Below the pieces are notes generated by a model that saw only the letters and a list, made by a program, of their open reading frames with translations, was not told the DNA's origin and ran no database searches. The position numbers were made by a program, and so were the translations under genes. DNA of 64,000 nt from Fidelibacterota bacterium. GTDB lineage: Bacteria > Fidelibacterota > SORT01. The stretch covers positions 63-64,062 of the forward strand of contig JACZYG010000015.1 of the NCBI GenBank assembly GCA_022571215.1. Reading direction: 5' to 3'. Below are positions 8,421 to 59,331 of the stretch, piece by piece (position 1 is the stretch's first letter; every line of letters begins with the position of its first letter).

Positions 8421-8837
8421 AATTGATGTCAACCACCTTCCGCCTTAATTCCCCGCCATACCGATGCCGTGTCCGGCTTTGCCGTACGGACGGCGCGGAC
8501 TGCTGCCTCTTCGAGACTTCCCCTCCTATTTATAATGGGGAGATGAAAAATTCCCCTCTATCGGAACCCTACCCGACATCGGTTAAGCGGGCAAAGACGA
8601 CGAATCTCCCCTCCTTACAAAGGAGGGGATAAAGGGGTGGTTGTATTATAATTTGCACCGTGATGTGTGGTCGGCTTTTTAGCGTGCGGTCAGGGCAAGC
8701 CCTAACTCGCACAATAAGACTAAGCGGGTTTTTATGGAGTGCTCCCAACGGTGTTCCTACGGAACATCAACTGTGTGCTGATTAGGCAACAAGCCTCTCA
8801 ACCGCCACGAATCAATTATTCCTAAGCACAAAAAAAT

Positions 8838-16321: not shown

Positions 16322-16480
16322 GCGGTAACTTAACGGTTTTTCACTTTGACGGCAAGAAATTCATGCGGGTCGGAATTTTTACAATCCCGCCTTAGGCGGC
16401 GACAGACTTACCGTGCTCACAAGTCAACCACCCCTGCCTCTTCGAGGCTTCCCCTCCTTAAAAAGGAGGGGGAAAGTCAC

Positions 16481-16530
16481 CGTCATTGCGAGACTTAATT
16501 CATTAGGTCGAAGCAACCTTATAATCGCAA
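16481..16530. repeat. MITE-like palindromic element, GTCATTGCGAG family (short copy)
   Basis: gtcattgcgag ... aatcgcaat inverted termini; shares a core with copies at 23311, 33112, 36576, 41635, 55451 and 55757. Confidence 0.6.
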
Positions 16531-16602
16531 TACAGAAAGACCCGAGTTTACTTCGTCGTTTCTCTCCTCGTAAAGACGGCACATTATACCACTCTTAATA
16601 CG

Positions 16603-16720
16603 CCCTGACCGCACTCACGAGTCAACCACCCCTGCCTCTTCGAGGCTTCCCCTCCTTCAAAAGGAGGGGAAAATAATGCTCCGCAGGAGCGGGCCTGCCC
16701 GACTAATGTCAGGCGGGGGA
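16603..16720. repeat. composite intergenic repeat (gccctgaccgcac module, CCCCTCCTT hairpin, gcctgcccgactaatgtcaggcggg module)
   Basis: The same modules recur at 16400-16475, 41834-41880, 48623-48680, 55665-55815 and 8684-8712. Confidence 0.6.
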
Positions 16721-16963: not shown

Positions 16964-19825
16964 ATGAAAAATTGGAGAACAAGAATGAAACAACTACGCC
17001 TTTTTGCAGCATTACTACTGCTGATTACTTTTTCTACCTGCTCCACCCGGCAGGCAGGAAAACAAACTTCCGAATCCTTTGAACCTCCTTTAACCGCAAC
17101 CATTCCGATTAACCCGAACGTCATAAAGGGAGAATTGGAAAACGGTATCAAGTATCTAATCCTTGTGAACAAAAAGCCTGAAAATCGAGCGGAATTGAGG
17201 CTTGTCGTAAATGTAGGTTCCGTGTTAGAAGCTGATGACCAGCAAGGACTTGCGCATTTCACCGAGCACATGGCTTTCAACGGTACCGAGCACTTTGCGA
17301 AGCATGAAATCATCGATTATCTCGAGTCAATAGGCACACGTTTCGGGGCTGACTTGAACGCATATACGAGTTTTGATGAAACTGTTTATAAGTTAAGAGT
17401 CCCGACCGACAGCATCGCGATAGTTGAAAAAGCGTTTCTAATACTTGAGGACTGGGCAAAGGGAATCACCTTCTCCGATGAAGAGATAGATAAGGAAAGA
17501 GGTGTCGTTATTGAAGAGTGGCGTCGTGGTCAGGGCGCCGAAATGAGGATGTTCAATAAGCAGCTCCCTATTCTCTTCAAAGATTCGCGCTATGCCGAAC
17601 GCTTACCCATAGGGAAGAAGGAAATTTTGGAGAGCTTCCCGTATGAAGCCGTAAAACGTTTTTATAAGGATTGGTATCGCCCGGAACTGATGTCGGTCAT
17701 CGCCGTCGGGGATTTTGACCCCGAATGGATCGAGGGTTTGATTCATGAGCATTTCAGCCGTATTCCCGCAAGCGAAACCGTGAAAACACGTGAGATATTC
17801 CGTATTCCGGATCACGCGGAAACTCTCACCGCCATAGCATCAGACCCTGAGGCTACAGGTTCCAGAATAGCTATCTACTACAAGGTCGAGCCGAAAGAAC
17901 AAAACAGTCACGGCGCGTATCGCGAAGGAATCATAACCAATCTCTACAATAACATGCTGAACAATCGGTTTCAAGAATTGCTGACCGAGCCGGATGCGCC
18001 CTTCTTATATGGATTTTCCGCGCAAGGCAGATTCGTCCGAACCAAAGAGGTTTACTATCTCGGCGCGGGTGTCGGCGACAATGGAATCGAGAGAGGTGTG
18101 GAAGCGCTGCTCACGGAAGCGGAACGGATTGCAAGATACGGGTTTACCGAATCTGAACTCGAACGGAATAAAGTCAGCATCATGCGCAGCATGGAAAAGG
18201 CATATTTGGAGCGGGACAAAACCAATTCACGTTCGTATGCGGCTGAATATATCAGGCACTTTCTCGTTGGAGAACCGATTCCCGGTATCGAGTATGAATA
18301 TAATCTTTACAAGCAATATCTCCCCGGCATCTCAATCGAGGAGATTAACGCGCTTGCCCGCAGCTGGCTGCCCGACGAAAATCGTGTAGTGCTGATAAAC
18401 CTGCCCGAGAAAGAAGGTATCAACGAGGTGAGAGAATCAGATCTGCTTGCCATCTTCAGCAGTGTTGAATCATCCGATCTCGAACCATACGTAGATGCGG
18501 TATCCGACGCTCCTTTACTGCCCGACTTAGCAGAACCTTCCGGCGTCTTATCCACACGCTTCATAGAGGAGATCAACGTCCACGAACTGACGTTGACTAA
18601 TAACGTTCGCATCTTGATGAAGAAAACCGATTTCAAGAACGATGAGATACTTTTCAGGGCATACAGCAGGGGCGGCAGATCCCTCCTCAGCGATGAGGAT
18701 ATAGTAGCGGGCAGAACGGCAACCGATATTGTCGGTGAAAGCGGATATGGAACTTTTAATTATATCCAACTTAAAAAACGGTTGGCGGGTAAGATTGTCA
18801 GCGTATCCCCTTACATCGGTTCGATGATGGAAGGGATCACAGGTTCATCCTCGCCCGAAGATTTAGAGACGATGTTTCAACTTATACATCTTATCTTCCA
18901 ATCTCCACGCAAGGACACTACCGCTTTTTTAGCGTATAAAGAACGGATGACGGGGTTTCTCCAAAATCTCAGAGCGCGTCCTGAAGCAGCATTCCGGGAC
19001 ACCGTATCGGCGATACTGACACAGCGGAGTCCCCGCTACCGTCCATGGTCTATAGACTTCATAGACGAGTTCGACCACGACAGGTCGTTTGAGATTTTCC
19101 GCGACCGGTTCGCGGATGTAGACGGCTTCACATTCATTTTTGTCGGCAATTTCGAGATAGACGAACTGACCGAACTGGCTCAAACGTATCTCGGTAGTCT
19201 GCCGGCGCTAAACAGAAACGAAAATTGGCGGGACGACGGAGTTGACCCCCCTGTCGGAGTCATCAAGCGGAGCGTGTTCAAGGGACAGGAACCGAAAAGT
19301 TTTACGCGATTCGCTTTCACGGGTGATTTTAAATGGAATCGCCAAAACAGATACGAGTTAGCTTCAATGGCGAAAGTACTTGGTATCAAGCTGCGGGAAG
19401 TGCTGCGGGAAGATCTCGGCGGAACATACGGCGCGCGGGTACGGGCGACAGCGCAAGAGTTTCCGGATCAGGAATACCGCGTGGATATTTCATTCGGAAG
19501 CGCTCCCGAACGAGTCAGCGAACTTTCCGAAGCCGTGCTTTTGCAGATAGACAGCCTGAAGAACTTCGGCACTACCGATAAATATCTCACAAAGGTCAAG
19601 GAGATTCAGCTTCGCAGTCGCGAGACAGACCTGAAGGAAAACGGGTTTTGGGTCAGCGCTCTCGAAAACATCGCTAAACATAACGGGGATTTTTCTGATA
19701 TGAACAGCTATGACGAGCTTGTGGAATCACTCTCCCTCGAAACCATCCAAAATGCCGCACGAAAATATCTCAATGATAATAATTACGTGCAGGTTTCACT
19801 CTATCCTGAGGGATTCGAAGAATGA
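16964..19825 (+). CDS. M16-family zinc metallopeptidase (pitrilysin/insulinase-like, tandem M16 units)
   Basis: Inverted zinc motif HFTEHMAFNGTEH (HxxEH); 953 aa, consistent with active plus inactive M16 halves; signal peptide. Confidence 0.85.
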   Translation: MKNWRTRMKQLRLFAALLLLITFSTCSTRQAGKQTSESFEPPLTATIPINPNVIKGELENGIKYLILVNKKPENRAELRLVVNVGSVLEADDQQGLAHFTEHMAFNGTEHFAKHEIIDYLESIGTRFGADLNAYTSFDETVYKLRVPTDSIAIVEKAFLILEDWAKGITFSDEEIDKERGVVIEEWRRGQGAEMRMFNKQLPILFKDSRYAERLPIGKKEILESFPYEAVKRFYKDWYRPELMSVIAVGDFDPEWIEGLIHEHFSRIPASETVKTREIFRIPDHAETLTAIASDPEATGSRIAIYYKVEPKEQNSHGAYREGIITNLYNNMLNNRFQELLTEPDAPFLYGFSAQGRFVRTKEVYYLGAGVGDNGIERGVEALLTEAERIARYGFTESELERNKVSIMRSMEKAYLERDKTNSRSYAAEYIRHFLVGEPIPGIEYEYNLYKQYLPGISIEEINALARSWLPDENRVVLINLPEKEGINEVRESDLLAIFSSVESSDLEPYVDAVSDAPLLPDLAEPSGVLSTRFIEEINVHELTLTNNVRILMKKTDFKNDEILFRAYSRGGRSLLSDEDIVAGRTATDIVGESGYGTFNYIQLKKRLAGKIVSVSPYIGSMMEGITGSSSPEDLETMFQLIHLIFQSPRKDTTAFLAYKERMTGFLQNLRARPEAAFRDTVSAILTQRSPRYRPWSIDFIDEFDHDRSFEIFRDRFADVDGFTFIFVGNFEIDELTELAQTYLGSLPALNRNENWRDDGVDPPVGVIKRSVFKGQEPKSFTRFAFTGDFKWNRQNRYELASMAKVLGIKLREVLREDLGGTYGARVRATAQEFPDQEYRVDISFGSAPERVSELSEAVLLQIDSLKNFGTTDKYLTKVKEIQLRSRETDLKENGFWVSALENIAKHNGDFSDMNSYDELVESLSLETIQNAARKYLNDNNYVQVSLYPEGFEE

Positions 19826-19914
19826 CGATTTATTAGGCTCATCTACGAGCCAGAATTTGCAACGAAGTTCCTACGGAGCAAAGACAGGTATAGGTGAGGC
19901 TGCCTGCATTATGT

Positions 19915-20004
19915 AACTCTTGACACACCCCGCCCTTCGGGCACCCCTCTTAATAGAGGGGTGGATTCGAATCCAAAGGATGAGAAGACGGGGTGTGTCA
20001 AGAG
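19915..20004. repeat. about 90-bp composite hairpin element (module B: CACCCCTCT-loop-AGAGGGGTG with long outer arms)
   Basis: ctcttgacacaccccg...cacccctcttaatagaggggtg...cggggtgtgtcaagag; partial copies at 22125, 23497, 25511, 25948 and 48431. Confidence 0.65.
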
Positions 20005-20140
20005 TTGAAGATTAACGTCATTGCTAAAAACAGACTACACTGATAAATATTTAGTCGTTTCCAATTTGCGCGTTTAATAGTACATTCTACATTAAACGCA
20101 CTACTCGCAATTAAATAGAATTCAAAACGGAGGCAACACC

Positions 20141-21928
20141 TTGAAAAGAAGACTCACTATTTATTCAGCGCTACTTGCGCTTTTAACACTCTCATGTTCT
20201 GCTGAGGTCATAACGGATGACGCAACACAGGAGAATCCCGCTGTCGCCGAGCTTCACCGACTCTTTGATGACGATTGGGAACTGACACTGATAGAGAATC
20301 CTATCTTTGCGACTATGCTCGGAGACAAGCGTTACAGTGATAGGCTATCAGTTGTTTCTGTCGCTCACAGCGAAGAGCTCAATCAGATAAACAAAGAGTT
20401 TCTTGCGCGTTTGGAAGCGATAGACCGCTCCGCCCTCCCTAAGAACGAAAAGCTGAACTACGACATCTATAAGCTGCTGACCGAAGACGCGGTTGAGAGC
20501 GCTGAATTCAAATCCTACCTCCGACCGATAACGAATAGAGGCGGATTTCATATTTCTTTTCCGGAACTGCCTAACAGGATTCCCCTGAACAATGTAGAGG
20601 ATTACTCGAACTATATCGCTCGTCTGAATGCGTTCAAGGAATATACCGAATCACATATCGCGGTGATGCGTGTCGGAATGGAAGGCGGATACGTCCTTCC
20701 CAAGATAGTTCTTGAGGGCGCCGAGGAGACCATCGAACCGCACATAGTCACCGACGCAACCGAGTCCCTTCTTTACAAACCATTTGAAAAATATCCGAAA
20801 GGAATAGATGAATCCGATCAAGCGCGGTTGACCGGAGCGGGTGTGGACGCTATCATGAACTCGGTCGTTCCCGGTTATAAATTGTTCCTCGATTTCATGG
20901 AGAACGAATATCTGCCCGCATCAAGCGATGAGATCGCCGCTTCCTCCCTGCCGAACGGAAAAGCGTATTACGAATATCGCGTCCGCTCCTTCACCACTTT
21001 AGACGTGACACCGCAGGAGGTTCACGACAGAGGACTGTCGGAGGTCGCGCGTATCCGAGCCGAGATGGACGAGGTTATCAAAGAATCAGGGTTTGAGGGA
21101 GATTTCAAAGCGTTCGTTGAATTCCTCCGCACCGATGACCAATTCTACGTTGACTCGCCCGAACAACTTATGAAGGAAGTCGCCGTCGTTCTTAAAAAAA
21201 TGGACGGGCAACTGCCGAGCCTCTTCGGGAAGCTGCCGAGGATGCCTTACGGAATAAAAAAAGTGCCGGATTTCATCGCGCCGAAAACAACAACCGCATA
21301 TTATAATCGTCCCTCAGGCGACGGCACGAAGGCGGGCTTCTATTTCGTGAATACGTACGATCTGCGTAGCCGACCGACTTACGAAATTCAGGCTCTCTCT
21401 CTGCACGAGGCTGTACCCGGACATCATCTCCAGATAGCGATTCAACAGGAACTTGAGAACCTGCCGACTTTCCGGCTCTACAGCGGTTTTACGGCTTTCA
21501 CAGAAGGTTGGGCGCTCTACGCCGAACGGCTTGGTCTTGAGGTCGGCTTCTACGAGGACCCTTACTCCGATTTCGGTCGACTGACCTACGAGATGTGGCG
21601 GGCGCTCCGTCTCGTCGTTGATACAGGGATGCACTACTTCGGCTGGTCACGACAGCAAGCCATCGACTATATGGCGGAAAACTCCGCCCTGACTCTACAT
21701 AACATCACCACGGAAGTCGACAGGTACATCTCCTGGCCCGGACAGGCGCTTGCCTACAAAACAGGCGAACTGAAAATCCGCGAACTGCGCGCCCGCGCCG
21801 AAGACAAACTTGGCAAATCTTTCGATGTCCGCGCCTTCCACGATGTCGTCCTCGGAAGCGGCTCCGTCCCACTCATGGTCCTTGAAGCCAATGTGGATGA
21901 ATGGATTGCGAGTGAGATGGGGAGGTAG
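20141..21928 (+). CDS. DUF885-family lipoprotein (putative metallopeptidase-like)
   Basis: Signal peptide plus Cys; conserved DUF885 motif LHEAVPGHHLQ; 595 aa. Confidence 0.75.
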   Translation: MKRRLTIYSALLALLTLSCSAEVITDDATQENPAVAELHRLFDDDWELTLIENPIFATMLGDKRYSDRLSVVSVAHSEELNQINKEFLARLEAIDRSALPKNEKLNYDIYKLLTEDAVESAEFKSYLRPITNRGGFHISFPELPNRIPLNNVEDYSNYIARLNAFKEYTESHIAVMRVGMEGGYVLPKIVLEGAEETIEPHIVTDATESLLYKPFEKYPKGIDESDQARLTGAGVDAIMNSVVPGYKLFLDFMENEYLPASSDEIAASSLPNGKAYYEYRVRSFTTLDVTPQEVHDRGLSEVARIRAEMDEVIKESGFEGDFKAFVEFLRTDDQFYVDSPEQLMKEVAVVLKKMDGQLPSLFGKLPRMPYGIKKVPDFIAPKTTTAYYNRPSGDGTKAGFYFVNTYDLRSRPTYEIQALSLHEAVPGHHLQIAIQQELENLPTFRLYSGFTAFTEGWALYAERLGLEVGFYEDPYSDFGRLTYEMWRALRLVVDTGMHYFGWSRQQAIDYMAENSALTLHNITTEVDRYISWPGQALAYKTGELKIRELRARAEDKLGKSFDVRAFHDVVLGSGSVPLMVLEANVDEWIASEMGR

Positions 21929-22124
21929 GAACAAGTGGGTAATAAATCTTCAGTGGCAGTCAGGACTTGTGAAGTCTCGCCATTGTGGTGGTCCTGACGC
22001 TGTTTGGCATTTTATTGCGGTCAGGATGAATCCTGACTCGCACACGGGAGGGGAATCTAAGGAAAATATTTTTGAAACGTAGGCCGCCTTTTTTAAATGA
22101 GAGTTCCAGGATATTTTCTATTAT

Positions 22125-22192
22125 GAGCACACCCCGTCCTTCGGACACCCCTCTTTTTAGAGGGGAACTTTAATCCCATCTTCGATGGGATA
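22125..22192. repeat. conserved double-hairpin element (hairpin B plus aatcccatcttcgatgggata)
   Basis: gaggggaactttaatcccatcttcgatgggata is 33/33 identical to 48474-48506. Confidence 0.7.
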
Positions 22193-22250
22193 CACGCTGC
22201 TGGGATGAGATGTCAGGCGAGGGGTGTAATCGTTCGGTAACGATAATTTT

Positions 22251-22303
22251 GGAGTGCATTTACTGCGTCAATGCAACATCAACACAGTTGATGTACTCCA
22301 TAT
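22251..22303. repeat. 53-bp nested-palindrome element (ggagtgcat...catcaacNNagttgatg...atgcactcc), copy 1
   Basis: Four copies in the window (22251, 33231, 41904, 50442) at roughly 85-90% identity; each has outer and inner inverted repeats. Confidence 0.8.
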
Positions 22304-22387
22304 ATCACACACTCCATTTTGCCCCGGTGGCAATGCCACACTCAAGGGATGAGGCTTTCCCTGACCCGCACCTTACCGTCTTTCCGA

Positions 22388-22485
22388 ACCTCGATTTATT
22401 GAGGTGAAGGAATCTCAGAACTATCCTCAATCGCAATTATGAGATTGCCGCGTCGCTATGCTCCTCGCAATGACAATCGCAAGCG
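22388..22485. repeat. MITE-like element (ccttgatttat...gaatctcag / gagattgcc ... ctcctcgcaatgac)
   Basis: Related to the copy at 33112-33190 and to the GTCATTGCGAG family termini. Confidence 0.55.
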
Positions 22486-22522
22486 GTCGCAGTACCTATT
22501 CTAACTCGCGCATTGTTAACTA

Positions 22523-23272
22523 TCATCCCTCCCGCGGTTCCCGCCTTTTTAGCATGAGGTAGAGATAGTAAACGGCGAGGGCGGAAAGAATGTGTTTCAG
22601 CGTGTGACCGCTTAGTAGACCATAGTTGACAGAATAGAGCTCCCGGTCGCTTAATTCGGTGAATTTGGAGAGCATGAATAATCCGAACGCGTAAAGCAGA
22701 TAGCGACCGAGCGTGTACCGTCCCTTATACATAAGGAGAACCGCCGTGATGGCAAGGAATGTGACAGATTGCAAATAGATATAAATTCTCAGGTCGTCCG
22801 TGTAGCGCCAATACAAAACGCTGAGCATTCCGATAACCACTGCCGGAACGAGCAAAAACTTTTCGATTTTAGGGTTCACGAACTCTGTCAGCACGGCGCT
22901 GAATAGCCCCATAAATCCTATCATCATAGGCAATCTGTCCCAGACGAGAGCGGCATCGTTAGGGTTCCAATGGTAATATCCGGAACCGAACGAAACGATA
23001 GTGACGCCAGCGAACATCGTTGTCCATGAGTAGCGCGCCTCACTACTGAGATGTGTGATAGCGAAAACGGAACCAATCATTCCGACTATGAAGAATAGAA
23101 GATTCGAGCTGACGTCGAAGAAATTAGGGATGCCGAAGAACGTTCTGTTATCCGCGAAATTGTGATATGGCTGATACTGCTCGATCTCACCGATGAGCAT
23201 CACCGCAATAAGTAAAACGGCGAAGAGCGATAGGAGTATGATGATCTTCTTATGTTCGTCAAGTTCTTTCAA
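22523..23272 (-). CDS. alkaline-ceramidase-like polytopic membrane protein
   Basis: About 7 TM segments; N-terminal motif YHNFADNRTFFGIPNFFDVSSNL resembles bacterial ceramidase-family (PF05875-like) proteins. Confidence 0.45.
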   Translation of the reverse strand: MKELDEHKKIIILLSLFAVLLIAVMLIGEIEQYQPYHNFADNRTFFGIPNFFDVSSNLLFFIVGMIGSVFAITHLSSEARYSWTTMFAGVTIVSFGSGYYHWNPNDAALVWDRLPMMIGFMGLFSAVLTEFVNPKIEKFLLVPAVVIGMLSVLYWRYTDDLRIYIYLQSVTFLAITAVLLMYKGRYTLGRYLLYAFGLFMLSKFTELSDRELYSVNYGLLSGHTLKHILSALAVYYLYLMLKRREPREG

Positions 23273-23310
23273 CTTTTATCAACCCCTAACCCCCACATAC
23301 CATTAATTAC

Positions 23311-23441
23311 CGTCTTTGCGAGACCTGATTTATCAGGGCGAAGCAATCTCAGATTTTGGGGTAGCAGGAAAGAGATGAGATTGCTTTGTCATCCGTCAAC
23401 TGACGGACGAGGGGTGTCATAGCTCGATGACAATAATTCTG
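23311..23441. repeat. MITE-like element, GTCTTTGCGAG family
   Basis: cgtctttgcgagacctgatttatcagggcgaagcaatctcag is about 90% identical to 36576-36618; internal gcaatctca/tgagattgc inverted repeat. Confidence 0.65.
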
Positions 23442-23570
23442 GAAAGAACATCAAAATCACACATCCGTCACTCTGTGCCTCCTCCCTCGAGGGAGGAGGT
23501 TTACACACCCCGCCCGCCAGCCAGACATCGGTCTGGTTGATAGAGGGAAACATTAATCCCCGTTTGTGAA

Positions 23571-25295
23571 TTAAAACAAATTTCCTTCATCGCCCAACAT
23601 CGCCTTACGGATGAGAGGTATCGGAGGTCCACCGAACGACAGGAATTTATCGTGAAATTCCTTCCACGTTCCATTCGTCCCCTTTGCCGCCATCCAATCT
23701 TCACGAAGTTTCCTTATCATCAGTTTGCCCATCGTATAATTCAAATACGGCGGATCGTAAGTACCCCGCGCCGATTGCTGTTCGGCGTTTCCATGATCCT
23801 GATATGCCATTTCTCTGAACATCGTATAAGATTCTTCAACCGTCATCCCTTCAGTGTGCATTCCGATAGAAGAAATTAATCGAACGTTTCGGAGCAGCGC
23901 GTTTTGCAATTGACCGATATGAATTTCCGGATCTCCATCGCTAAATCCCGCTTCCCACATCATCTCCTCGGTGTAGTGCGCCCATCCTTCAGCAAACGCA
24001 TAGCCCACAAAAACCTGACCGAACCTGGATTTTGAGCGATTTGAATGGAGGAACTGCAAAAAATGACCGGGCCATATTTCATGTACGGACACAAATAGCA
24101 GATCGGCGTTTCCGGGAAGGTAATCGTTTTTCTCCTCTTCCGACCATGATTCGTCAGGCGGCGCTATGTAATAGGTGGAGGGTAATCCTTCCTCATATGG
24201 TCCTGGAATATTTATGTAGGCGAAATTCCACGAGGCGTAAGACGGCGCTTCGTCCACTAACGCTATTTCAGTGCCGGGTATTGAAATCAATTCGTTCTCT
24301 ATCAAAAATGTTCTGAGACCCTCTAGCTGTTCTCTCGCTCCTTCGACAGGCCCACCCTTATTTTTGACCGACCGCATTTTGGCGATGCAATCGTATATAG
24401 TAACATCAGGGGCGTATTCATCGCATGCTTCTTGAAGGGCATCGAGATTTCGCCGAAGGTCAGCCTCTCCGACTATTTTCAATTCGGCGAGAGACACGTC
24501 TACCCTTTCGGTCGCCCACAACATCTCTTGATACAGCTCCGCTCCAAGCGCGAAATCCTCAGTCGCATCAGGCAGTTGAGCGACTACCCAATCGTCCAAT
24601 TTTGTCATCGCTGTAATGGCAAGTCCGTTTGCCGCCTTGAATTCCGACTGCAAAACCGGGTCACTGACTTCAGCGAAAACCGTCGGAACATCATCTCGAT
24701 AATATTTCGCTAAGCCGCCAAAAGCTGTGTGCGCAAGATTGGCGAACGTTCTCGGCATCGGTGTTTTGAGATTTGCCATTGCCTGCTCAACCGCTTTGGG
24801 AAGGGCATTCGCGTATTTTGTATATGCTTTCATGCGAACCTCAAGAGGCGCGTATTCACGTGAGATATATACATCCGGATCAAATTGCCAGTAATAGTAA
24901 AGTGGATTATTGTACGGCAGCCGCGCTCTATCCAACTGAAAAAGTTCCTTGTCTATAATACTCACAAGATATTCACGCTCAAAACGCTGCTCTTCGCTTA
25001 GATTGGAAGATTCAAATGCCATAGCGGTATGACGCTGAGAACGCAGCATCGCAATGTTAGCGTTTAAAGACTCGGGACTCCAATCGGGTAAAATCCCGTC
25101 AAATTCATGGCGTCCGGCGCTGACTCCGAATGTCGGATTAGCAACGAAATAACTCTCCATGAAATCGGCTACGAATGAATCCCATTCGGTCGAGGTCAGT
25201 GGTTCAGTCTTCATTGTTTCTTTCTGACACCCAAGACTCAAAAGCGCGCCGGCAAGCAATATGCCGATAAGAAAATTTTGTTTCATCCATTTCAT
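23571..25295 (-). CDS. DUF885-family lipoprotein (paralog)
   Basis: Signal peptide plus lipobox (SLGC); DUF885 motif VHEIWPGHFLQ; 574 aa. Confidence 0.75.
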   Translation of the reverse strand: MKWMKQNFLIGILLAGALLSLGCQKETMKTEPLTSTEWDSFVADFMESYFVANPTFGVSAGRHEFDGILPDWSPESLNANIAMLRSQRHTAMAFESSNLSEEQRFEREYLVSIIDKELFQLDRARLPYNNPLYYYWQFDPDVYISREYAPLEVRMKAYTKYANALPKAVEQAMANLKTPMPRTFANLAHTAFGGLAKYYRDDVPTVFAEVSDPVLQSEFKAANGLAITAMTKLDDWVVAQLPDATEDFALGAELYQEMLWATERVDVSLAELKIVGEADLRRNLDALQEACDEYAPDVTIYDCIAKMRSVKNKGGPVEGAREQLEGLRTFLIENELISIPGTEIALVDEAPSYASWNFAYINIPGPYEEGLPSTYYIAPPDESWSEEEKNDYLPGNADLLFVSVHEIWPGHFLQFLHSNRSKSRFGQVFVGYAFAEGWAHYTEEMMWEAGFSDGDPEIHIGQLQNALLRNVRLISSIGMHTEGMTVEESYTMFREMAYQDHGNAEQQSARGTYDPPYLNYTMGKLMIRKLREDWMAAKGTNGTWKEFHDKFLSFGGPPIPLIRKAMLGDEGNLF

Positions 25296-25385
25296 CCTTT
25301 TTTTAACTATTTAATATTTGGTAACTCAGTACAGATAAAGCGGGGCGAACATTCCGCATCGCTCTCATCCTGCCTAAACAATTTG

Positions 25386-25456
25386 CTGGGGAACAGGGAT
25401 TCGAACCCCGACCTACGATTCCAGAGACCGCTGTCCTGCCATTAGACTATTCCCCA
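25386..25456 (-). tRNA. tRNA-Gln (anticodon CUG)
   Basis: Folds as a cloverleaf by hand: acceptor UGGGGAA/UUCCCCA with U1-A72 and discriminator G as in bacterial tRNA-Gln; D-stem GUCU/GGAC; anticodon stem GCGGU/AUCGU with loop CUCUGGA; T-arm CGGGG-UUCGAAU-CCCUG. Confidence 0.8.
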
Positions 25457-25510
25457 ATGTCCAAATAAAATTATATTCTCACCCCGTCAGAGTCAAGTTG
25501 ATTTGATATT

Positions 25511-25575
25511 AATCCCCTCTTGAGAGGGGTGGATTCGAGACTCTTTTGAGTCGAGAAGACGGGGGGTGTCAGGAG
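25511..25575. repeat. partial module-B element (hairpin plus right arm) flanking the DUF559 gene
   Basis: atcccctcttgagaggggtg is the exact reverse complement of 25973-25992 on the other side of the gene. Confidence 0.65.
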
Positions 25576-25943
25576 TTCTCAATATTTTTTATCATCCAAT
25601 CGTTTATGACTTCCACAACCGCATTTAAATTCTTTCTTACATCAGAATCCTGAAAGCGCAAAACGGTCAAAGGAATTGATTCCAAAATCTTTTGCCTTTT
25701 CATGTCCTGCTCCTGTTTATATGCATGAGTAATGCCATCAATCTCGATAACTAACCTTAAATCGGGAGAAAAGAAATCAACTATAAAGTTACCAATAGGC
25801 TTCTGCCTATGGAAATCTATTCCCATCAACTTTTTCCCTTTTAATTCATTCCAAAGCAATACCTCAGATAACGTGGAATTTTTTCTCAGCATTCGTGCTA
25901 CACGTTTTAACTTGGGATTATATTTGAGATCAATTTTTACCAT
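25569..25943 (-). CDS. DUF559 (Vsr-like endonuclease fold) domain protein
   Basis: RMLRKNSTLSEVLLWNELKGKKLMGIDFHRQKPIGNFIVDFFSPDLRLVIEIDG is the typical DUF559 core; start placed at the internal Met (MVKIDL) because the 5 upstream codons overlap a repeat module. Confidence 0.65.
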   Translation of the reverse strand: MVKIDLKYNPKLKRVARMLRKNSTLSEVLLWNELKGKKLMGIDFHRQKPIGNFIVDFFSPDLRLVIEIDGITHAYKQEQDMKRQKILESIPLTVLRFQDSDVRKNLNAVVEVINDWMIKNIENS

Positions 25944-25947
25944 GATA

Positions 25948-26018
25948 TAGTTACACACCCCGCCCTTCGGGCACCCCTCTCAAGAGGGGATCTTTTATCC
26001 CATCCTTGATGTGATATA
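25948..26018. repeat. module-B element (left arm plus hairpin plus atcccatccttgatgtgatat hairpin)
   Basis: cacaccccgcccttcgggcacccctct is identical to the 19924 copy. Confidence 0.65.
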
Positions 26019-26031
26019 TAATTCTAAAGAA

Positions 26032-27522
26032 TCAATTTCCCCGTGAATAGTTGGATAGAATAACGCCGATACGATTCTGAAGTTCGTTCGCCATACTTGT
26101 CGGGACAGCATAATTATTCACGATGAAACTGAAAATAATGTCCTCACCGTCTGCCGTCGTGATATAGCCCGACAGCGACCTGACATAACTGACGTACCCC
26201 GTCTTCGCTCTCATATTCCGTTGAGCATTGGTTCCCCGCATGCGACGACCGATACTTCCGTCAACTCCCGCTATCGGTAGAGAATCATAATAACTGTCAA
26301 AATACTTATGCCCTCTCATGTAACGCAGAAGTGTCGCTACCTGTCGGGTGCTCACAAGGTTCATCCTCGACAGTCCCGAACCGTCCACTATCTTGATACC
26401 GTTTGCATCGATACCGATTCCGCTCAAAAGGGACTTAACAGATTTAATTCCTGCACTCGCGCTCCCCTCATGATTGTATTCCCTGCCGATTGTTTTGAGC
26501 AGTTGCTCCGCGTAAAAATTCTGGCTCGATTTATTCACAGTCCGAATCATCCTGCTCATCGGCGGTGACGTATAAACCGCTACAGTTTGTAATTTATCAT
26601 AATTCGGCTTACGCTTCAGATCGTCACCGTCCTTCGCTTTTCCACCCACAGATATTCCCGCCGACTCAAAGGTTTCTTTGACAACCGTCGCCGTATAAAG
26701 AGTCGGATTTCTGACCGATATCCAATCCGTTTTCGCTTTTTTATTGATCGGAAATTTTCCCCAAAACGTAAACAGATTGCCGGCTGCCGATCTGCTGAAA
26801 TCATAATAAAGAGTAGAATCAGGCAGTGTCGTTTTAATATTATTTTTTATGGTGACGTATTTTGTCGGCGGATCGAGTTCGATAACAGCCTTATCCCCCA
26901 CATTTTCGCCCGGTTTGATACGTACTTTTACGGTATTATCATTGAACGATAGACCGCTAATGCGAGCGGAATAGTAATACGGCTCATCGTCCCAACTCCA
27001 ACCGTACCCCATAGCGACATCGTCGAAATAGTCGTCATCCCCGATGACATCTCCCGTGATTTTTCTGATGCCCATCGCTTTTAGGGAGTCAGCCCACTCC
27101 TGAAAAGTTCCTGTAATATTATTGCCGTTATACCTGCCCGAAATGGTCGGATCACCCGAACCGCGAACGATAAGATTACCGTTAAGAGTTCCATTCGAGA
27201 CGGTTCCGTCATAGTACAATCTGGTTTTATACGTGAAGTTCGGACCGAACCGAACCAACGCCGTTGCCGTGGTAAAGAGCTTTATATTGGATGCCGGAAT
27301 CAGCAGTTTATCCTCGTTATGTCTGTAAAGCACCTCCCTCGTATCAGGAGCTTCGATATAAACTCCCCAACTCGCCGAAGCGAAAGCGGGATCCGCGATG
27401 AGGTGGTCAACTTCCGCTTTGAGCCTCTCTAACGGAGTATCGTTTCCGACTTTGCCCGCCGCGCAGCCAAAAGAGATAGTTAGTAAGAATAACATTATAA
27501 TAGGCATAAACTTGTTCATCAA
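26032..27522 (-). CDS. dacB: D-alanyl-D-alanine carboxypeptidase/endopeptidase (PBP4, peptidase S13)
   Basis: Signal peptide; SxxK (PASNIKL), SxN-like and KTG (AKTGYV) motifs; 496 aa, typical of PBP4. Confidence 0.8.
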   Translation of the reverse strand: MMNKFMPIIMLFLLTISFGCAAGKVGNDTPLERLKAEVDHLIADPAFASASWGVYIEAPDTREVLYRHNEDKLLIPASNIKLFTTATALVRFGPNFTYKTRLYYDGTVSNGTLNGNLIVRGSGDPTISGRYNGNNITGTFQEWADSLKAMGIRKITGDVIGDDDYFDDVAMGYGWSWDDEPYYYSARISGLSFNDNTVKVRIKPGENVGDKAVIELDPPTKYVTIKNNIKTTLPDSTLYYDFSRSAAGNLFTFWGKFPINKKAKTDWISVRNPTLYTATVVKETFESAGISVGGKAKDGDDLKRKPNYDKLQTVAVYTSPPMSRMIRTVNKSSQNFYAEQLLKTIGREYNHEGSASAGIKSVKSLLSGIGIDANGIKIVDGSGLSRMNLVSTRQVATLLRYMRGHKYFDSYYDSLPIAGVDGSIGRRMRGTNAQRNMRAKTGYVSYVRSLSGYITTADGEDIIFSFIVNNYAVPTSMANELQNRIGVILSNYSRGN

Positions 27523-33093: not shown

Positions 33094-33111
33094 TTTACAT
33101 ACTCAACCGTA

Positions 33112-33190
33112 GTCATTCCGAACCTTGATTTATCGAAGTGAAAGAATCTCATATTTATCCAATCGGTAGTATGAGATTGCCCGCCTGTCA
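33112..33190. repeat. MITE-like element (gtcattccgaaccttgatttatcgaagtgaaagaatctcat...atgagattgcc)
   Basis: Same architecture as 22388-22485, 23311 and 36576. Confidence 0.55.
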
Positions 33191-33230
33191 GTCGGAGTGT
33201 ATGATCGCCTTTTACGTTAACGGCCCTTTT

Positions 33231-33283
33231 GGAGTGCATTGACTGTGTCAATGCCGCATCAACATAGTTGATGCACTCCATAT
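33231..33283. repeat. 53-bp nested-palindrome element, copy 2
   Basis: ggagtgcattgactgtgtcaatgccgcatcaacatagttgatgcactccatat. Confidence 0.8.
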
Positions 33284-33520
33284 AAAAACACGCCGTCTTC
33301 TCATCCCTTAGGGATTTGAATCCTCCATAGGAGTTCCTTCGGAACACCCCTCTTGATGAGGGAAATTTCTCCTTCCATCCTTTAATAAAGGAAGGAAACG
33401 TCATCGTCAATTTCATATTTTCATGTTGCCTCGGCTCTGATTAAACCAGAGAACTCTATAGTGTATTGCAGTGTTTATCAGGCAGTAGTATAATTCATCT
33501 AAAGTAAAATATTAATATTA

Positions 33521-36546: not shown

Positions 36547-36575
36547 CAGACAATCCCGACACGCTTCCAATTCAC

Positions 36576-36679
36576 TGTCTTTGCGAGAGCTGATTTATCA
36601 GGTCGAAGCAATCTCATGTCCGGTTAAACGATGAATACTGAATTGATTCGGATCAACACTCCTCGCAATGACAATAATC
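36576..36679. repeat. MITE-like element with terminal inverted repeats gtctttgcgagag / ctcctcgcaatgac
   Basis: About 104 bp; internal gcaatctca; its 5-prime half is about 90% identical to 23311-23352. Confidence 0.7.
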
Positions 36680-36732: not shown

Positions 36733-36930
36733 TTTCCCCTCTTAATTAGAGGGGAATTTTTCGCATCAGAGATGCGATGAGTGATTATTACACACTCCGT
36801 CACTTTGAAACCACCCCGTCTTTCGGCTCCGCCTAAATCCACCCCTCCTTCTTAAGGAGGGGATAAATGGGTGCCCCGCTTTCAGCGTGATTAGTCCCGC
36901 ATCGGCGCGGAAATGCACAGGCGGGAGTTG
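36733..36930. repeat. cluster of G/C-rich hairpins (cccctcttaattagagggg; cccctccttcttaaggagggg; gcatcagagatgc)
   Basis: Consecutive palindromes between the GNAT and tolC genes. Confidence 0.6.
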
Positions 36931-41628: not shown

Positions 41629-41634
41629 AGATTC

Positions 41635-41736
41635 TGTCATTGCGAGGAGTCGAAGACGACGCGGCAATCTCAATGCTATCGGTATCACAATTACGAGATT
41701 GCTTCTCCCGATAAATCGGGATCGCAAAGACGATAG
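41635..41736. repeat. MITE-like element, GTCATTGCGAGG family
   Basis: tgtcattgcgaggag...gcggcaatctca...gagattgc...atcgcaaagacgatag. Confidence 0.6.
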
Positions 41737-41903
41737 TTCGTGCGAGTTAGGATTTCAAAACCACGCCATCTGCTGTGGTTCTGACTGCCACAGAATCCTG
41801 ACCAGCACGGTTTTCCTCCCCCTTTGAAGGGGGTGCTCCGAAGGAGCGGGCCTGCCCGACTAATGTCAGGCGGGGGATGTTATTGTTCGGTATCGACAAT
41901 TTT

Positions 41904-48370: not shown

Positions 48371-48430
48371 TTTCATATTGAAATCAGGGAGGAGGAGACA
48401 CGACACACCCTCCCGATGGATCGGGATAAA

Positions 48431-48506
48431 CTTCCTCCGAAGGAGTTCCTTCGGAACACCCCTCTTAATATAGAGGGGAACTTTAATCCCATCTTCGATG
48501 GGATAT
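48431..48506. repeat. conserved double/triple hairpin element (tccgaagg...ccttcgga; cacccctcttaatatagagggg; atcccatcttcgatgggat)
   Basis: Its 3-prime 33 nt are identical to 22160-22192. Confidence 0.7.
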
Positions 48507-55219: not shown

Positions 55220-55391
55220 TGTTCAGTTCCCTCGCTCTTTTAATAGTCTATCAATAATGTCGATTTCTCGAAGAAAAATATTACAGCAACAATCAAAAAC
55301 ATGCAAGAGTTATATTAGGAATTAGCGAACTCGAACCGGATAGTGAGATATTGACCGAATCTTAACTCTTAACACACCTCGTCCTGCGAGC

Positions 55392-55444
55392 GCCCCTCTT
55401 ACACAGAGGGGAATTTATAATCCCTCCTTATCTAAGGAGGGGAA
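55392..55444. repeat. tandem G/C hairpins (cccctcttacacagagggg; ccctccttatctaaggaggg)
   Basis: Module A and B family members. Confidence 0.6.
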
Positions 55445-55450
55445 ATTCAT

Positions 55451-55570: not shown

Positions 55571-55756
55571 GGTGTTAGCTGGGTCTGACTGAATTCTGGC
55601 GGGGGAGGAACACGGTAAGTGTCAATAGAATCAACCGAAAGTGACGTACTATTTGTCAATTATGTGCGAGTCAGGGCTTGCCCTGACCGCCACAAAATAA
55701 GTCAACCACCCCCGCGCTTACAGCGCGTCCCCTCCTTTCAAGGAGGGGAAATTCAT

Positions 55757-59330: not shown

Positions 59331-59331
59331 A

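Follow-up and report, generated by a model that had tools for sequence, protein, structure and literature searches.

The conserved multi-hairpin element that recurs in the 64,000-nt stretch of Fidelibacterota DNA analysed here (the window) is probably a DNA-level repeat of the BoxC/PIT/TM family that forms the ends of DUF559 cassettes, as opposed to an RNA gene or a terminator. Repeats of this family (BoxC; PIT, potential intrastrand triplex; TM, triplex motif) were recognised in E. coli in the 1990s (Bachellier, 1990s; Hoyne 2000; both cited after Holder 2015, NAR, PMC4666352), occur in >260 genomes and form triplexes in vitro. Within the window the element is a repeat, not a regulator of adjoining genes, and it probably acts as selfish DNA, not as a small RNA or terminator. 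The preliminary description of this DNA, made from the sequence alone, had reported a conserved, repeated, multi-hairpin element, and this we confirm; its RNA-level readings of the element fared worse, as detailed below.

The sequence GAGGGGAACTTTAATCCCATCTTCGATGGGATA occurs exactly twice in the window, at 22160-22192 and 48473-48505, both times on the + strand and with 33/33 identical positions; 100 dinucleotide-preserving shuffles of the sequence gave zero matches. This identity had been noticed correctly, with the second copy placed one nucleotide too far (48474-48506). As also described earlier, the hairpin CCTTCGGA(A)CACCCCTCT-loop-AGAGGGG precedes both copies, and each 33-nt copy is part of a three-hairpin module (Table 1). 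The related versions that had been pointed out at 25948-26018 and 19915-20004 are genuine members (repeat families D9 and D12). Further hairpins listed as CCCCTCCTT-loop-AAGGAGGGG were recovered at 8607-8629, 16451-16471, 16647-16671, 36842-36862, 55422-55441 and 55728-55749, and the one at 50409-50432 proved imperfect. Intergenic DNA of the window, a Candidatus Marinimicrobia chromosome, is crowded with such mosaic hairpin modules: h2-type hairpins were all intergenic in both censuses of the window (n=11; n=15), intergenic DNA making up 12.5% of it. Among the orientable modules 13/15 read the same way on the + strand, GC skew being negative throughout the window.

On its purine-rich strand the module reads CCCCTCT-loop-AGAGGGG-(minihairpin)-GGGGTGTG, CCCCTCT being the pyrimidine block, AGAGGGG the purine block complementary to it and GGGGTGTG a G/T-rich mirror of the latter. 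Loop 1 has a length of 2-6 nt; loop 2 spans 11-45 nt and holds one or more minihairpins (h1). The h1 triloops are mostly TTC/TGC/TAC, equivalent to GAA/GCA/GTA on the opposite strand (the counts do not tell the strands apart), and C-GNA-G is a hyperstable DNA minihairpin. The module at 8607..8639 is devoid of h1 and therefore has the classical short-loop BoxC/TM layout. For the copy with h2 at 48459 the third block is only degenerate and 45 nt distant. The solo module at 22125..22192 matches, in layout and orientation, the gene-start flank of a DUF559 cassette that fills the orthologous intergenic region in the relative L201, and the version at 19915..20004 corresponds to both kinds of cassette flank joined on one single h2.

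Table 1. Modules, DUF559 gene and cassette in the window (coordinates are positions of the window).
Coordinates	Strand	Feature	Blocks and hairpins
22125..22192	+	Solo three-hairpin module, copy 1 of the 33-nt repeat	third-block complement CACACCCC 22128-22135; h1 minihairpin GTCC-TTC-GGAC 22136-22146; h2 CCCCTCT-TTTT-AGAGGGG 22148-22165; spacer AACTTTA; h3 ATCCCATC-TTC-GATGGGAT 22173-22191
48403..48505	+	Module with copy 2 of the 33-nt repeat	degenerate third-block complement ACACACCC 48403-48410; additional minihairpins TCCCGAT-GGA-TCGGGA and CTCC-GAA-GGAG; h1 GTTCC-TTC-GGAAC 48445-48457; h2 48459-48478; h3 48486-48504
25948..26018	+	Gene-start flank of DUF559 cassette	ACACACCCC 25953-25961; h1 GCCC-TTC-GGGC 25962-25972; h2 25974-25989; h3 25997-26015
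25505..25575	+	Gene-end flank of DUF559 cassette, orientation opposite to gene-start flank	h2 CCCCTCT-TG-AGAGGGG 25514-25529; hairpin-rich linker 25530-25559; third block CGGGGGGTGTC 25560-25570
19915..20004	+	Complete palindromic version	18-bp outer stem AACTCTTGACACACCCCG / CGGGGTGTGTCAAGAGTT around h1, h2 and a third hairpin
55372..55445	+	Degenerate copy	ACACACCTCG-TCCTGCGAGCG-CCCCTCT..AGAGGGG, then CCCTCCTTA..TAAGGAGGG hairpin
16422..16473	+	GGAGGGG-variant module; second copy 16620-16671 (families D5, D15)	ACCACCCC; h1 CCTC-TTC-GAGG; CCCCTCCTT-AAA-AAGGAGGGG
36813..36873	+	GGAGGGG-variant module	ACCACCCCG; linker; CCCCTCCTT-CTT-AAGGAGGGG
36734-36785		h2-h3 unit without third block, just upstream of 36813..36873	
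55700..55751	+	GGAGGGG-variant module	ACCACCCCC; h1 GCGCT-TAC-AGCGC; TCCCCTCCTT-TC-AAGGAGGGGA
8607..8639	-	GGAGGGG-variant module, reverse orientation	TCCCCTCCTT-ACA-AAGGAGGGGA-TAAA-GGGGTGGTT
25569..25958	-	DUF559 gene (YcjD-like, Vsr-fold PD-(D/E)XK endonuclease)	probable start ATG 25943
25505..26031	.	Whole DUF559 cassette, 527-nt insertion between S13 peptidase stop codon and region upstream of tRNA-Gln	

Nearest-neighbour hairpin folding of the 71-nt element as single-stranded DNA produced three separate hairpins with -16 kcal/mol (z = -6.3 for the + strand and z = -5.1 for the - strand), and the palindromic version at 19915..20004 folds with -34 kcal/mol (z = -9.8). Compensatory changes preserve the stems, as the preliminary description had anticipated: an h1 position pair that was left free in the search is C..G in 89 cases, T..A in 33 and mismatched in 2, and for a set chosen independently of sequence 94.9% of the cells are paired, with 19 double-sided changes and 0/500 shuffles as high. 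Hairpin covariation in DNA palindromes can come from intrastrand correction, no selection being needed. The third block mirrors the purine block (A replaced by T/A) in 42/44 distinct modules; the mean mirror score is 6.93 of 7, whereas 1000 permutations averaged 6.25 and never exceeded 6.48. Two block variants coexist in the window, each paired with its own matching third block, and the own-variant third block is kept at 8607, 16451, 16647, 19942, 22148, 25514, 25974, 36842 and 55728. This three-block mirror covariation fits a purine-motif DNA triplex, a structure that cannot form in RNA (PMC4666352). For the E. coli version, the first two blocks were found in vitro to form a hairpin onto which the third folds back as a purine-motif third strand (Holder 2015, PMC4666352).

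The cassette gene of the window was identified by matches to Pfam PF04480 (E=1.4e-31) and PDB 3HRL (E=9e-15), with NCBIfam NF007294 staying below cutoff. Residues D56, E67 and H73 are invariant in the DUF559 alignment (A1), their catalytic role being assumed from the fold; in fold and conserved residues the gene agrees with the nuclease fold of Vsr/PD-(D/E)XK homing endonuclease genes. The third block of the downstream flank shares nucleotides with the stop codon of the gene. DUF559 adjoins 10/119 element loci; no other ORF family recurs in their neighbourhood. The association was also seen in the reverse direction, for 74 metagenomic DUF559 loci picked by protein alone (the locus scan used a five-sequence alignment, a nine-sequence one being too diverse). 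An h2 hairpin is present upstream in 62/74 of these loci, downstream in 61/74 and on either side in 72/74 (97%), compared with 7/106 control windows, and a gene-proximal third block was detected upstream in 56/74 and downstream in 59/74. Flanks of the same locus are more mutually complementary than flanks of different loci (p = 8e-7), reaching 111-nt arms in locus L129. In 14/29 free-standing DUF559 genes, 2-8 nt separate the end of the third block from the ATG; the block may therefore play a double role in the translation start region. Taken together, DUF559 genes are near-universally flanked by inverted modules with the third block on the gene side. The association is apparently new: the literature searched contained no account of a link between DUF559 and repeats, and a 2026 Minerva preprint turned out to be unrelated to it. 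At the E. coli locus, a degenerate TM lies across the stop codon of ycjD, and TM_ECO no. 9 follows after about 170 nt. The gene is present in 3377/5426 E. coli genomes; in the others the eef island fills the site, and because of this no clean empty site is found in genomes without ycjD.

A footprint such as homing would leave is visible when relatives are compared, and a recurrent in-frame position in hsdR-like genes belongs to it as well. Relatives L200 and L201 have the empty site GTCAGAGTCAAGATGATT/TCAATT (the slash marks the insertion point), which is filled at the same position in the window and in L209-L212; L201 does have a DUF559 cassette, at another locus than that of the window. No target-site duplication was observed at 25505..26031, the one clean junction. 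The insertion includes additional non-hairpin sequence at both ends, and the ends are not alike in the window and L212; recombinational capture therefore fits as well as transposition. From h2 up to the DUF559 ATG the window and L212 agree in 53/53 nt, against 83% identity in the DUF559 coding sequence. More generally, modules are present in some and absent from other close relatives, the centres of orthologous intergenic regions are unlike in every relative compared (for the region around 48403..48505, a central ~690 nt is wholly unlike three relatives), and h1 and h3 are swapped for unrelated hairpins in orthologous copies. In L201 and L200 the orthologous intergenic region lacks the version at 19915-20004; the sequence there has diverged too far for an insertion boundary to be drawn cleanly.

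Beyond these relatives, a 25-nt core of the module was found in >119 species from many phyla, as the sole sequence that these loci have in common with the window; the core is not lineage-specific. For 22/122 copies, at least 100 open codons extend on both sides (same orientation, 12 copies; opposite orientation, 10). Pfam domains recognised on both sides of the insert include those of LigA, UvrA, an NRPS C domain, an ATP-grasp acyl-CoA synthetase, a RumA-like protein, PMT_2 and APH+RapZ_C. Only 2 of 2.9 million viral contigs contain the core, neither of them with DUF559, and we rejected viral contigs as its vector. Also rejected was a replication-strand rule: at 102 loci the module orientation was split 52 versus 50 relative to local GC skew, and there is therefore no general sign of replication-coupled single-strand transposition.

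The order of pyrimidine block, complementary purine block and G/T mirror block is what unites the modules with BoxC/PIT/TM_ECO, and the sequence flavour is shared too (CCCTCTCCC..GGGAGAGGG..GGGTGAGGG there versus CCCCTCT..AGAGGGG..GGGGTGTG here). Both are multi-copy and intergenic (here, in the window), form inverted pairs, mark hypervariable loci and are spread across phyla, BoxC/PIT/TM being found in Enterobacteria, Cyanobacteria and others. The TM definition (ITxF) specifies loops of 1-6 nt, whereas loop 2 of the modules has 11-45 nt and a minihairpin; the h3 hairpin after the module belongs to the lineage of the window, not to BoxC/PIT/TM; and TM_ECO are 'always intergenic', whereas module copies in other genomes also reside in frame inside genes. 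The last systematic TM study, Holder 2015, sought mobility genes near E. coli TMs and found none, nor did it detect an in vivo triplex signal in duplex DNA (PMC4666352). By contrast, the modules described here flank DUF559 genes, making DUF559 a candidate enzyme.

If the element is such a repeat, blocks 1 and 2 would form a hairpin in single-stranded DNA and the third block would fold back as a purine-motif third strand, with loop 2 carrying the GC minihairpin h1 (TTC/GAA triloop) and h3 following in the lineage of the window. The module would be the terminal repeat of small DUF559 cassettes, in which two modules are inverted with their third blocks next to the gene, and solo modules, including both copies of the 33-nt repeat, would be dispersed copies or remnants. 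By analogy with REP/RAYT, it is conceivable, if short of an even chance, that recognition and cleavage of the folded module by the DUF559 nuclease is what causes cassettes and solo modules to be copied or transposed. On its own, a Vsr-like nuclease of ~120 aa cannot perform strand transfer. More doubtful is the broader proposal that DUF559/YcjD nucleases are the missing partners of BoxC/PIT/TM, and possibly of 'orphan' CGTC REPs, which cut the triplex-plus-minihairpin and maintain or spread cassettes and solo modules across phyla. Under that proposal, the system would resemble REP/RAYT while being built on a PD-(D/E)XK nuclease, and its cassettes and solo modules would also sit in frame in hsdR, ligA and uvrA as translated inserts.

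It is unlikely, but deserves the most serious hearing among the alternatives, that the element is a REP-like repeat moved in trans by an HUH tyrosine transposase (RAYT/TIRYT) or another enzyme, with DUF559 as a passenger or as a gene that preferentially lands between repeats. Like REPs, the modules are short GC-rich palindromes scattered over intergenic DNA, singly or as inverted doublets; in both systems the repeats flank a single small nuclease-type gene, and in E. coli that gene is single-copy while the repeats are many. REPs flank RAYT genes, occurring there as inverted doublets (Bertels and Rainey 2011, PMC3116915), and intragenic REPs have already been described in uvrA and ligase genes, where some module copies reside too. 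In addition, the terminal inverted repeats by TIRYT genes have a GGGGWSAS motif, which the E. coli/cyanobacterial third block GGGGTGAG fits (PMC3733652), although GGGGTGTG of the window does not match it. The h1 minihairpins have a CGTC tag in 17/38, a CCA tail in 20/38 and a CA tail in 38/38 cases, recalling the CGTC-tagged REPs that 'lack a dedicated transposase', but their stems measure 4-7 bp and those of CGTC REPs 8-9 bp. The modules are also without the GTAG tag, three-block mirror symmetry is not a REP feature, and the core is near-identical across phyla whereas many REP families are species-specific. Moreover, the flanked gene encodes a PD-(D/E)XK Vsr-fold DUF559 protein, not an HUH Y1 transposase; no Y1 transposase, DDE transposase or integrase was found among the window genes, nor any such enzyme among the families commonest near the 119 elements. 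DUF559 is the sole enriched neighbour and 97% of its loci have oriented modules, which would hardly be expected of a mere passenger.

Other mobile elements share individual traits with the modules. RPE (Rickettsia palindromic elements) were reportedly described by Ogata in 2000 as lying in frame in protein-coding genes and being translated as short inserts, and we know of no transposase for them. By layout, in-frame palindromes and a CGTC...CCA pattern in about half of the h1 minihairpins resemble RPE, of which RPE-4 and RPE-6 are CGTC-tagged REPs (Di Nocera 2013, PMC3733652); the h1 stems are shorter, however, and the modules occur in many phyla and are tied to DUF559. Another parallel comes from Vsr-like (EDxHD) homing endonuclease genes that are free-standing and have hairpins in the 5' UTR (Dassa 2009, PMC2677866; I-Bth0305I, PMC3239194), namely a small Vsr-fold nuclease gene that invades genes, conserved hairpins just before the start codon and some copies in frame inside host genes. 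EDxHD genes, however, are phage-associated, reside between split-intein halves or in introns and have AT-rich hairpins carrying late promoters, whereas the flanks described here consist of GC-rich triplex-type repeats in inverted orientation, of which hundreds of solo copies exist as well. The palindromic 19915-20004 version and the inverted ends of the cassettes are reminiscent of MITEs, and the hairpin-rich ends and lack of target duplication are reminiscent of IS200/IS605; here, in contrast, there is no DDE or HUH transposase and no target-site duplication, and across loci the module orientation is not biased with respect to GC skew. Integron attC sites and 23S intervening-sequence cassettes were rejected, neither an integrase nor an rRNA context being present.

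Holder 2015 proposed for TMs a fragile-site role that generates variation (PMC4666352). The modules could accordingly be host-beneficial structural DNA sites that do not spread selfishly, either bound by nucleoid or topology proteins or acting as programmed fragile sites that vary intergenic regions, which we regard as improbable. TM loci are rearranged more among E. coli strains than control loci, module-bearing intergenic regions are hypervariable between relatives, and an HU-like gene at 4893-5165 of the window lends this reading weak support. It leaves unexplained the in-frame copies in essential genes, the near-identical cores in different phyla, the matched inverted copies around one gene family and the precise cassette insertion.

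Lower still we place a cis element acting on transcripts as an intrinsic terminator, an mRNA-protecting 3' hairpin or a hairpin that sequesters the Shine-Dalgarno sequence. Terminator function and Shine-Dalgarno sequestration had both been raised in the preliminary description. The hairpins are indeed stable and intergenic, one variant has AAGGAGG in its 3' arm, REPs in some genomes are believed to work in this way, and the position of the third block before DUF559 start codons would also suit such a role. Yet neither copy coincides with a terminator-like site, the hairpins being followed by AAC/AAT and not by a T-run, and copies occupy intergenic regions of all three kinds, convergent, tandem and divergent, the last offering nothing to terminate. 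All AAGGAGG hairpins are more than 100 nt away from the start of any long ORF; distances from modules to ORF starts are not fixed and range from 130 to about 500 nt, and the triplex motif accounts for the GGAGGGG arm as its purine block, which covaries with the third block. PIT elements have neither promoter nor terminator activity (as cited in PMC4666352), copies in other genomes are situated inside ORFs in both orientations, and RNA secondary structure does not explain the covariation of the mirror block. Covariation and preferences of strand and position, on which the original proposal had been staked, were observed, and the preferences differ from those of a terminator.

A gene for a small structured RNA, likewise suggested at first, is very improbable: three conserved hairpins with compensatory changes would be expected of it, but the element has no Rfam match (two tRNAs only at the gathering score, and nothing relevant at E<=10 over 19800-26100), folds about equally on both strands, is devoid of a conserved promoter or terminator, has h1 and h3 replaced by unrelated hairpins in orthologous copies and lies in either orientation inside coding regions, and its mirror covariation fits a DNA triplex. 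A protein-binding role, the remaining suggestion, is still plausible because the element flanks a nuclease gene.

The DUF559-module link is oriented, holds for nearly all DUF559 loci examined and extends from Marinimicrobia to E. coli ycjD; the question is therefore directly testable in E. coli. A 953-aa M16 peptidase ORF of the window yielded no record in a search for encoding contigs. The modules also bear on annotation: they give rise to spurious ORFs (e.g. 48416-48772 in the window), add 13-30 aa to real proteins and break assemblies, and the number of 'programmed inversions' predicted at DUF559, methylase and NRPS genes (PMC9881135) may be too high because of them.

The 33-mer GAGGGGAACTTTAATCCCATCTTCGATGGGATA occurs exactly twice in the window, at 22160-22192 and 48473-48505, with no match in 100 shuffles, and the repeat is real, far beyond chance. 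The preliminary description had correctly reported the two identical copies, but placed the second one base off. It had also noted that CCTTCGGA(A)CACCCCTCT-loop-AGAGGGG precedes each copy and that related versions and CCCCTCCTT..AAGGAGGGG hairpins lie elsewhere in the window; repeat finding bore this out, returning the former as family D9 (19923, 25953 and 55372) and family D12 (25969), and the latter where they had been placed. Folded as a single strand, 22125-22195 gives three independent hairpins, namely, a minihairpin (h1), a pyrimidine/purine hairpin (h2) and a further hairpin (h3), with an energy of -16 kcal/mol (z = -6.3 for the + strand and z = -5.1 for the complementary strand).

The window, a chromosomal contig of a Candidatus Marinimicrobia MAG with close homologues named Marinimicrobia, encodes two tRNAs and a set of ordinary housekeeping genes along with a prophage-tail remnant; a search of its genes found no transposase, RAYT (tyrosine transposase of REP-type repeats) or integrase. 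Long ORFs cover ~87% of the window and every h2-type hairpin falls in the other 12.5%, where several intergenic regions are mosaics of many distinct small hairpin families. Thirteen of the 15 orientable modules point in the same direction on the + strand, however the neighbouring genes are oriented. The window has a negative GC skew throughout; across 102 loci of other genomes, module orientation showed no correspondence with local GC skew.

Hairpins, modules and repeat families of the window, and the E. coli K-12 ycjD locus
Feature	Coordinates	Sequence or remark
h1 of 22125-22195		GTCC-TTC-GGAC
h2 of 22125-22195		CCCCTCT-TTTT-AGAGGGG
h3 of 22125-22195		ATCCCATC-TTC-GATGGGAT
Modules, majority orientation	8491, 16451, 16647, 22148, 23507, 25974, 33335, 36734, 36842, 48459, 50392, 55393, 55728	+ strand
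Modules, opposite orientation	8607, 25514	
Second repeat family (CGTC-tagged)	16479-16578, 22375-22475, 23309-23400, 36574-36673, 41631-41730, 55447-55570	
Family D2	22210-22302, 33190-33282, 41863-41955, 50443-50495	50443-50495 in reverse orientation
Family D18	8685-8715, 22016-22046, 48580-48610	reverse copies near 55660-55690, 41735-41800
ycjD (DUF559 gene, K-12)	1351407-1351760	degenerate TM overlaps stop codon
TM_ECO no. 9 (Holder Table 1, PMC4666352)	1351204-1351239	~170 nt downstream of ycjD

The behaviour of the module is that of DNA rather than of an RNA signal. The suggestion of a terminator fails, as neither copy has a terminator-like site or T-run and modules also lie in divergent intergenic regions; that of a small structured RNA is contradicted by the lack of an Rfam match for the element and by copies inside ORFs of other genomes in either orientation. 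The element as terminator, SD-sequestering switch or sRNA was rejected. The intergenic regions with modules are convergent, divergent or tandem, and ORF starts lie 130 to ~500 nt away. In other genomes, a single frame stays open for at least 100 codons on both sides of the copy in 22 of 122 cases, with 12 copies oriented along the gene and 10 against it. Pfam domains flank the insert on both sides in, for example, the LigA adenylation domain, UvrA, ATP-grasp acyl-CoA synthetase, a RumA-like methyltransferase, PMT_2 and APH+RapZ_C, as well as in an NRPS condensation domain, where the positions differ in two homologues. Typical peptides encoded by the inserts are HTPPFGHPSQEG, TPRPSGTPLxRG and SPLLRGVPEGRGV. 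By eye, a T9SS-tail-like motif could be read on the reverse strand beside the module at several Ignavibacteria loci. Within the window, ORFs 48416-48772 (+, 118 aa) and 33084-33416 (-, 110 aa) lie wholly within DNA made up of mosaic repeats and are, almost certainly, not real genes; since most reading frames of the repeats are open, false gene calls result.

Structure-preserving covariation of the hairpins is observed directly: stem-preserving compensatory changes are found across copies, and the objection of 'no compensatory changes' foreseen in the preliminary description does not apply. Two h1 positions were unconstrained in the genome scan; they form C..G in 89 copies and T..A in 33, and just 2 copies have a mismatch. 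Among 34 distinct 11-nt h1 sequences of an unbiased set, 94.9% of cells are paired, with both-side changes in 19 cells; none of 500 shuffles attains the observed pairing statistic, and with shifted partner columns pairing drops to 13-46%. Longer h1 versions are unrelated in sequence yet foldable (48 distinct h1 sequences, median z = -2.95). The type of h3 also differs in orthologous copies, being ATCACATC..GATGGGAT in the window versus CGCATC..GATGCG in three relatives (L212, L200 and L208). Palindromic DNA is capable of self-correction, and hairpin covariation is therefore no proof of RNA function.

The purine strand of the window module reads CCCCTCT-loop-AGAGGGG-TG-[h1]-C-GGGGTGTG. The same three-block layout is found in BoxC/PIT/TM, a known family of triplex-motif repeats, whose 23 TM copies in E. 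coli K-12 have the form CCCTCKCCCC-loop-GGGGAGAGGG-TTA|CCG-GGGTGAGGGG (Holder et al. 2015, PMC4666352), whereas the loop-2 minihairpin is an addition of the window module. The TM motif is present in >260 genomes, the isolated TM strand forms an intrastrand purine-motif triplex by CD and NMR, TM loci are tied to genomic instability, and, according to earlier work cited there, BoxC/PIT/TM elements have no promoter or terminator activity (PMC4666352). In a set not chosen by module sequence, consisting of flanks of DUF559 nuclease genes from a protein search, the window and its relatives, the third block mirrors the purine block (G stays G, A becomes T or A) in 42 of 44 distinct modules. The purine/third block pairs are GGAGGGG / GGGGTGG (28 modules), AGAGGGG / GGGGTGT or GGGGTGA (6), GAAGGGG / GGGGTAG (5), AAAGGGG / GGGGTAT (2) and GAGAGGG / GGGTGAG (1). 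The mirror score averages 6.93 of 7, compared with 6.25 when pairs are permuted, and 1000 permutations reach at most 6.48. Two variants coexist in the window, each with a third block matching its own purine block; the AAGGAGG arm, which had been likened to a Shine-Dalgarno sequence, is thereby explained as the purine block belonging to the GGAGGGG variant. The element is a Marinimicrobia variant of the known BoxC/PIT/TM repeats that has a minihairpin in loop 2 and an additional third hairpin. The published TM search covered loops of 1-6 nt only (PMC4666352), and hairpin-bearing variants would therefore have gone unseen.

A scan of the 25-nt core CACCCCGYCCTTCGGRCACCCCTCT against one genome per species gave at least 119 loci. 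Among the matches listed are Ignavibacteria, Cyanobacteria, Bacteroidota, Chloroflexota, Verrucomicrobiota, Alphaproteobacteria, Patescibacteria, Thermotogae, Fibrobacteres and even archaeal MAGs, as well as isolates of Cyanobacteria (Scytonema HK-05, Calothrix NIES-267) and Bacteroidota (Pedobacter, Daejeonia). The ~40-nt module is the sole sequence common to the window and the at least 119 listed loci. Only 2 of 2.9 million viral contigs contain the core.

DUF559 is the only recurrent family among ORFs adjoining the at least 119 listed loci, being directly adjacent in at least 10; a Pfam scan of 119 neighbouring ORFs ranked it first with 6 hits, followed by PIN with 3, with no Y1 transposase among the families listed. 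In the reverse test we used 80 metagenomic DUF559 loci picked by protein similarity alone, 74 of them with sufficient flank. Of these 74, 72 (97%) had an h2 hairpin on at least one side (62 upstream, 61 downstream, 51 on both), and the gene-proximal third block was present upstream in 56 and downstream in 59, so that the oriented flanking of DUF559 is directly supported; control windows 600-1200 nt off at the same loci had the hairpin in 7/106. Complementarity between upstream and downstream flanks is higher within one gene than between loci (Mann-Whitney p = 8e-7), and at one locus (L129) the arms reach 111 nt. The genes are free-standing at 51 of the 80 loci and in frame with an upstream ORF of at least 300 nt at 29, 25 of which are open for at least 300 nt downstream too. 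Hosts of the latter are typically hsdR-like, Eco57I-like and N6-methylase genes; at L033 the entire cassette lies in frame within a 1265-aa restriction-modification gene. In many unrelated samples (L135-L142, L173 and L191), an in-frame cassette recurs at one shared position of hsdR-like genes (...AYHQYYAVNxAVESTLRAxG|NSPPLEGW...), a pattern that site-specific homing or an old, domesticated insertion could explain. Among the products enriched for predicted programmed inversions are DUF559, 'endonuclease domain-containing', Eco57I methylase, N-6 DNA methylase and NRPS/PKS (Milman 2023, PMC9881135); these gene classes are those bearing inverted modules, and part of the inversion signal may therefore stem from the repeats.

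The DUF559 protein of the window belongs to a Vsr-fold family (PF04480; PDB 3HRL, E = 9e-15), and the family alignment has invariant D, E and H residues. Between the window and its relative L212, the stretch from h2 to the DUF559 start codon is 53/53 identical and the neighbouring tRNA 67/67, with identities of 83.2% for the coding sequence, 71% for the gene-end flank and 67% for h3. In 14 of 29 free-standing DUF559 genes, 2-8 nt separate the end of the third block from the ATG, and the block may also serve translation initiation; such a role, if real, would help to account for the perfectly conserved gene-start flank. In a single case read by eye, the Parcubacteria locus L020 (994-2681), a small GIY-YIG (UPF0213-like) nuclease ORF adjoins a module, which suggests that other small nuclease genes may employ module flanks.

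Comparison of orthologous contigs of relatives at ~83% nucleotide identity directly revealed indel polymorphism. A clean insertion of 527 nt (25505-26031), between the stop codon of the S13 peptidase gene and the tRNA-Gln upstream region, is composed of an inverted module, the DUF559 gene and a module with h3. The site is empty in L200 and L201 (GTCAGAGTCAAGATGATT|TCAATT), occupied in the closer relatives L209-L212, and has no target duplication. L201 carries a different DUF559 cassette in the DUF885/ceramidase intergenic region, the orthologue of the region with 22125-22192. Its gene-start flank, CACACACCCCG-[h1 variant]-CACCCCTCTTAATAGAGGGGAATTTAT-[h3 variant], matches 22125-22192 in architecture and orientation. 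Thus, the element corresponds to the gene-start flank of a DUF559 endonuclease cassette, and 22125-22192 is best read as a solo copy or remnant of such a flank. In the intergenic region of the second copy, ends of ~110 nt are conserved and the centre is wholly different in each of four genomes; its orthologue in L208 holds another h1-h2-h3 unit with different h1 and h3. Beside the DUF559 cassette, at 25476-25484, comparison with L200, L201 and L212 revealed one case of ancestral GACTCTGAC-TCAACG-AGA versus GACTCTGAC-GGGGTG-AGA in the window and L209-L211. The 6-nt patch may reflect short-patch conversion; it gives rise to a new GACGGGGTG, third-block-like and able to pair with CACCCCCCGTC ~80 nt off.

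In the proposed mechanism, the DUF559 nuclease would recognise the folded module (hairpin, third strand and minihairpin) and would nick or cut it, favouring the copying of cassettes and solo modules. The nearest working analogy is REP/REPIN with RAYT (PMC3116915), but the DUF559 system would use a PD-(D/E)XK enzyme instead. Alternatively, modules could possibly be moved by a trans-acting RAYT/TIRYT, since h1 minihairpins partly match the CGTC...CCA format of 'orphan' REPs (17/38 and 20/38) and the GGGGTGAG variant matches the GGGGWSAS motif of TIRYT repeats (PMC3733652). A simple transposon is argued against by the lack of target duplication, the variable, non-hairpin ends of the single clean insertion, the absence of a strand-transfer enzyme and an orientation uncorrelated with GC skew. 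The BoxC/PIT/TM element class is not new in itself. What appears to be unreported in the searchable literature is the variant with hairpins, its in-frame copies across many phyla and, most importantly, the systematic link to DUF559; together they provide a concrete, testable candidate enzyme for these repeats.

At the ycjD locus of E. coli K-12 (L213, 1351040-1351406), a partial duplicate of the ycjD 3' end (GGAGACGGTGCTGGAGAATATTC...) lies between the degenerate TM and TM_ECO no. 9, and resembles a vestige of a second cassette or a rearrangement. Given 23 TMs in 4.6 Mb, the chance of such TM-ycjD proximity is estimated at ~0.002. Of 5426 complete E. coli genomes, 3377 have ycjD; in the others, the fabI-sapF site is taken up by the eefRABCD island. 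A 2026 study inferred that eef was lost independently at least 2 times, with ycjD replacing it each time (PMC12817139). Holder et al. mention neither ycjD nor any endonuclease, and state that their work never turned up mobility functions near TMs (PMC4666352).

Other repeat families occur in the window. A second family with long inverted ends, (A)CCGTC(A/T)TTGCGAG...CTCGCAA(A/T)GAC(A/G), often directly adjoins triplex-type modules and, like CGTC-type REPs (PMC3733652), has a CGTC tag followed by AT. Family D2 is a 93-nt repeat, GGAGTGC...GCACTCC around two inner hairpins (CATTGACnnnGTCAATG and CATCAACnnnGTTGATG), a three-way-junction-like palindrome with no match in Rfam. The small repeat D18, TGCGGTCAGG-loop-CCTGACTCGCAC, is also found in L200, L201 and L202 at non-orthologous positions. 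As for genes, the prophage-tail remnant in the 57417-63363 region comprises Prophage_tail and Sipho_tail/Dit domains in ORFs 57417-59330 and 59332-62346, followed by a Mrr_cat restriction-endonuclease-like ORF (62479-63363). Coding tandem repeats are present at 7424-8005 (54-nt period, within the DUF4097 'toastrack' ORF 7034-8365) and at 3749-4420 (~150-nt period, FG-GAP repeats within the T9SS-tailed ORF 2950-4722).
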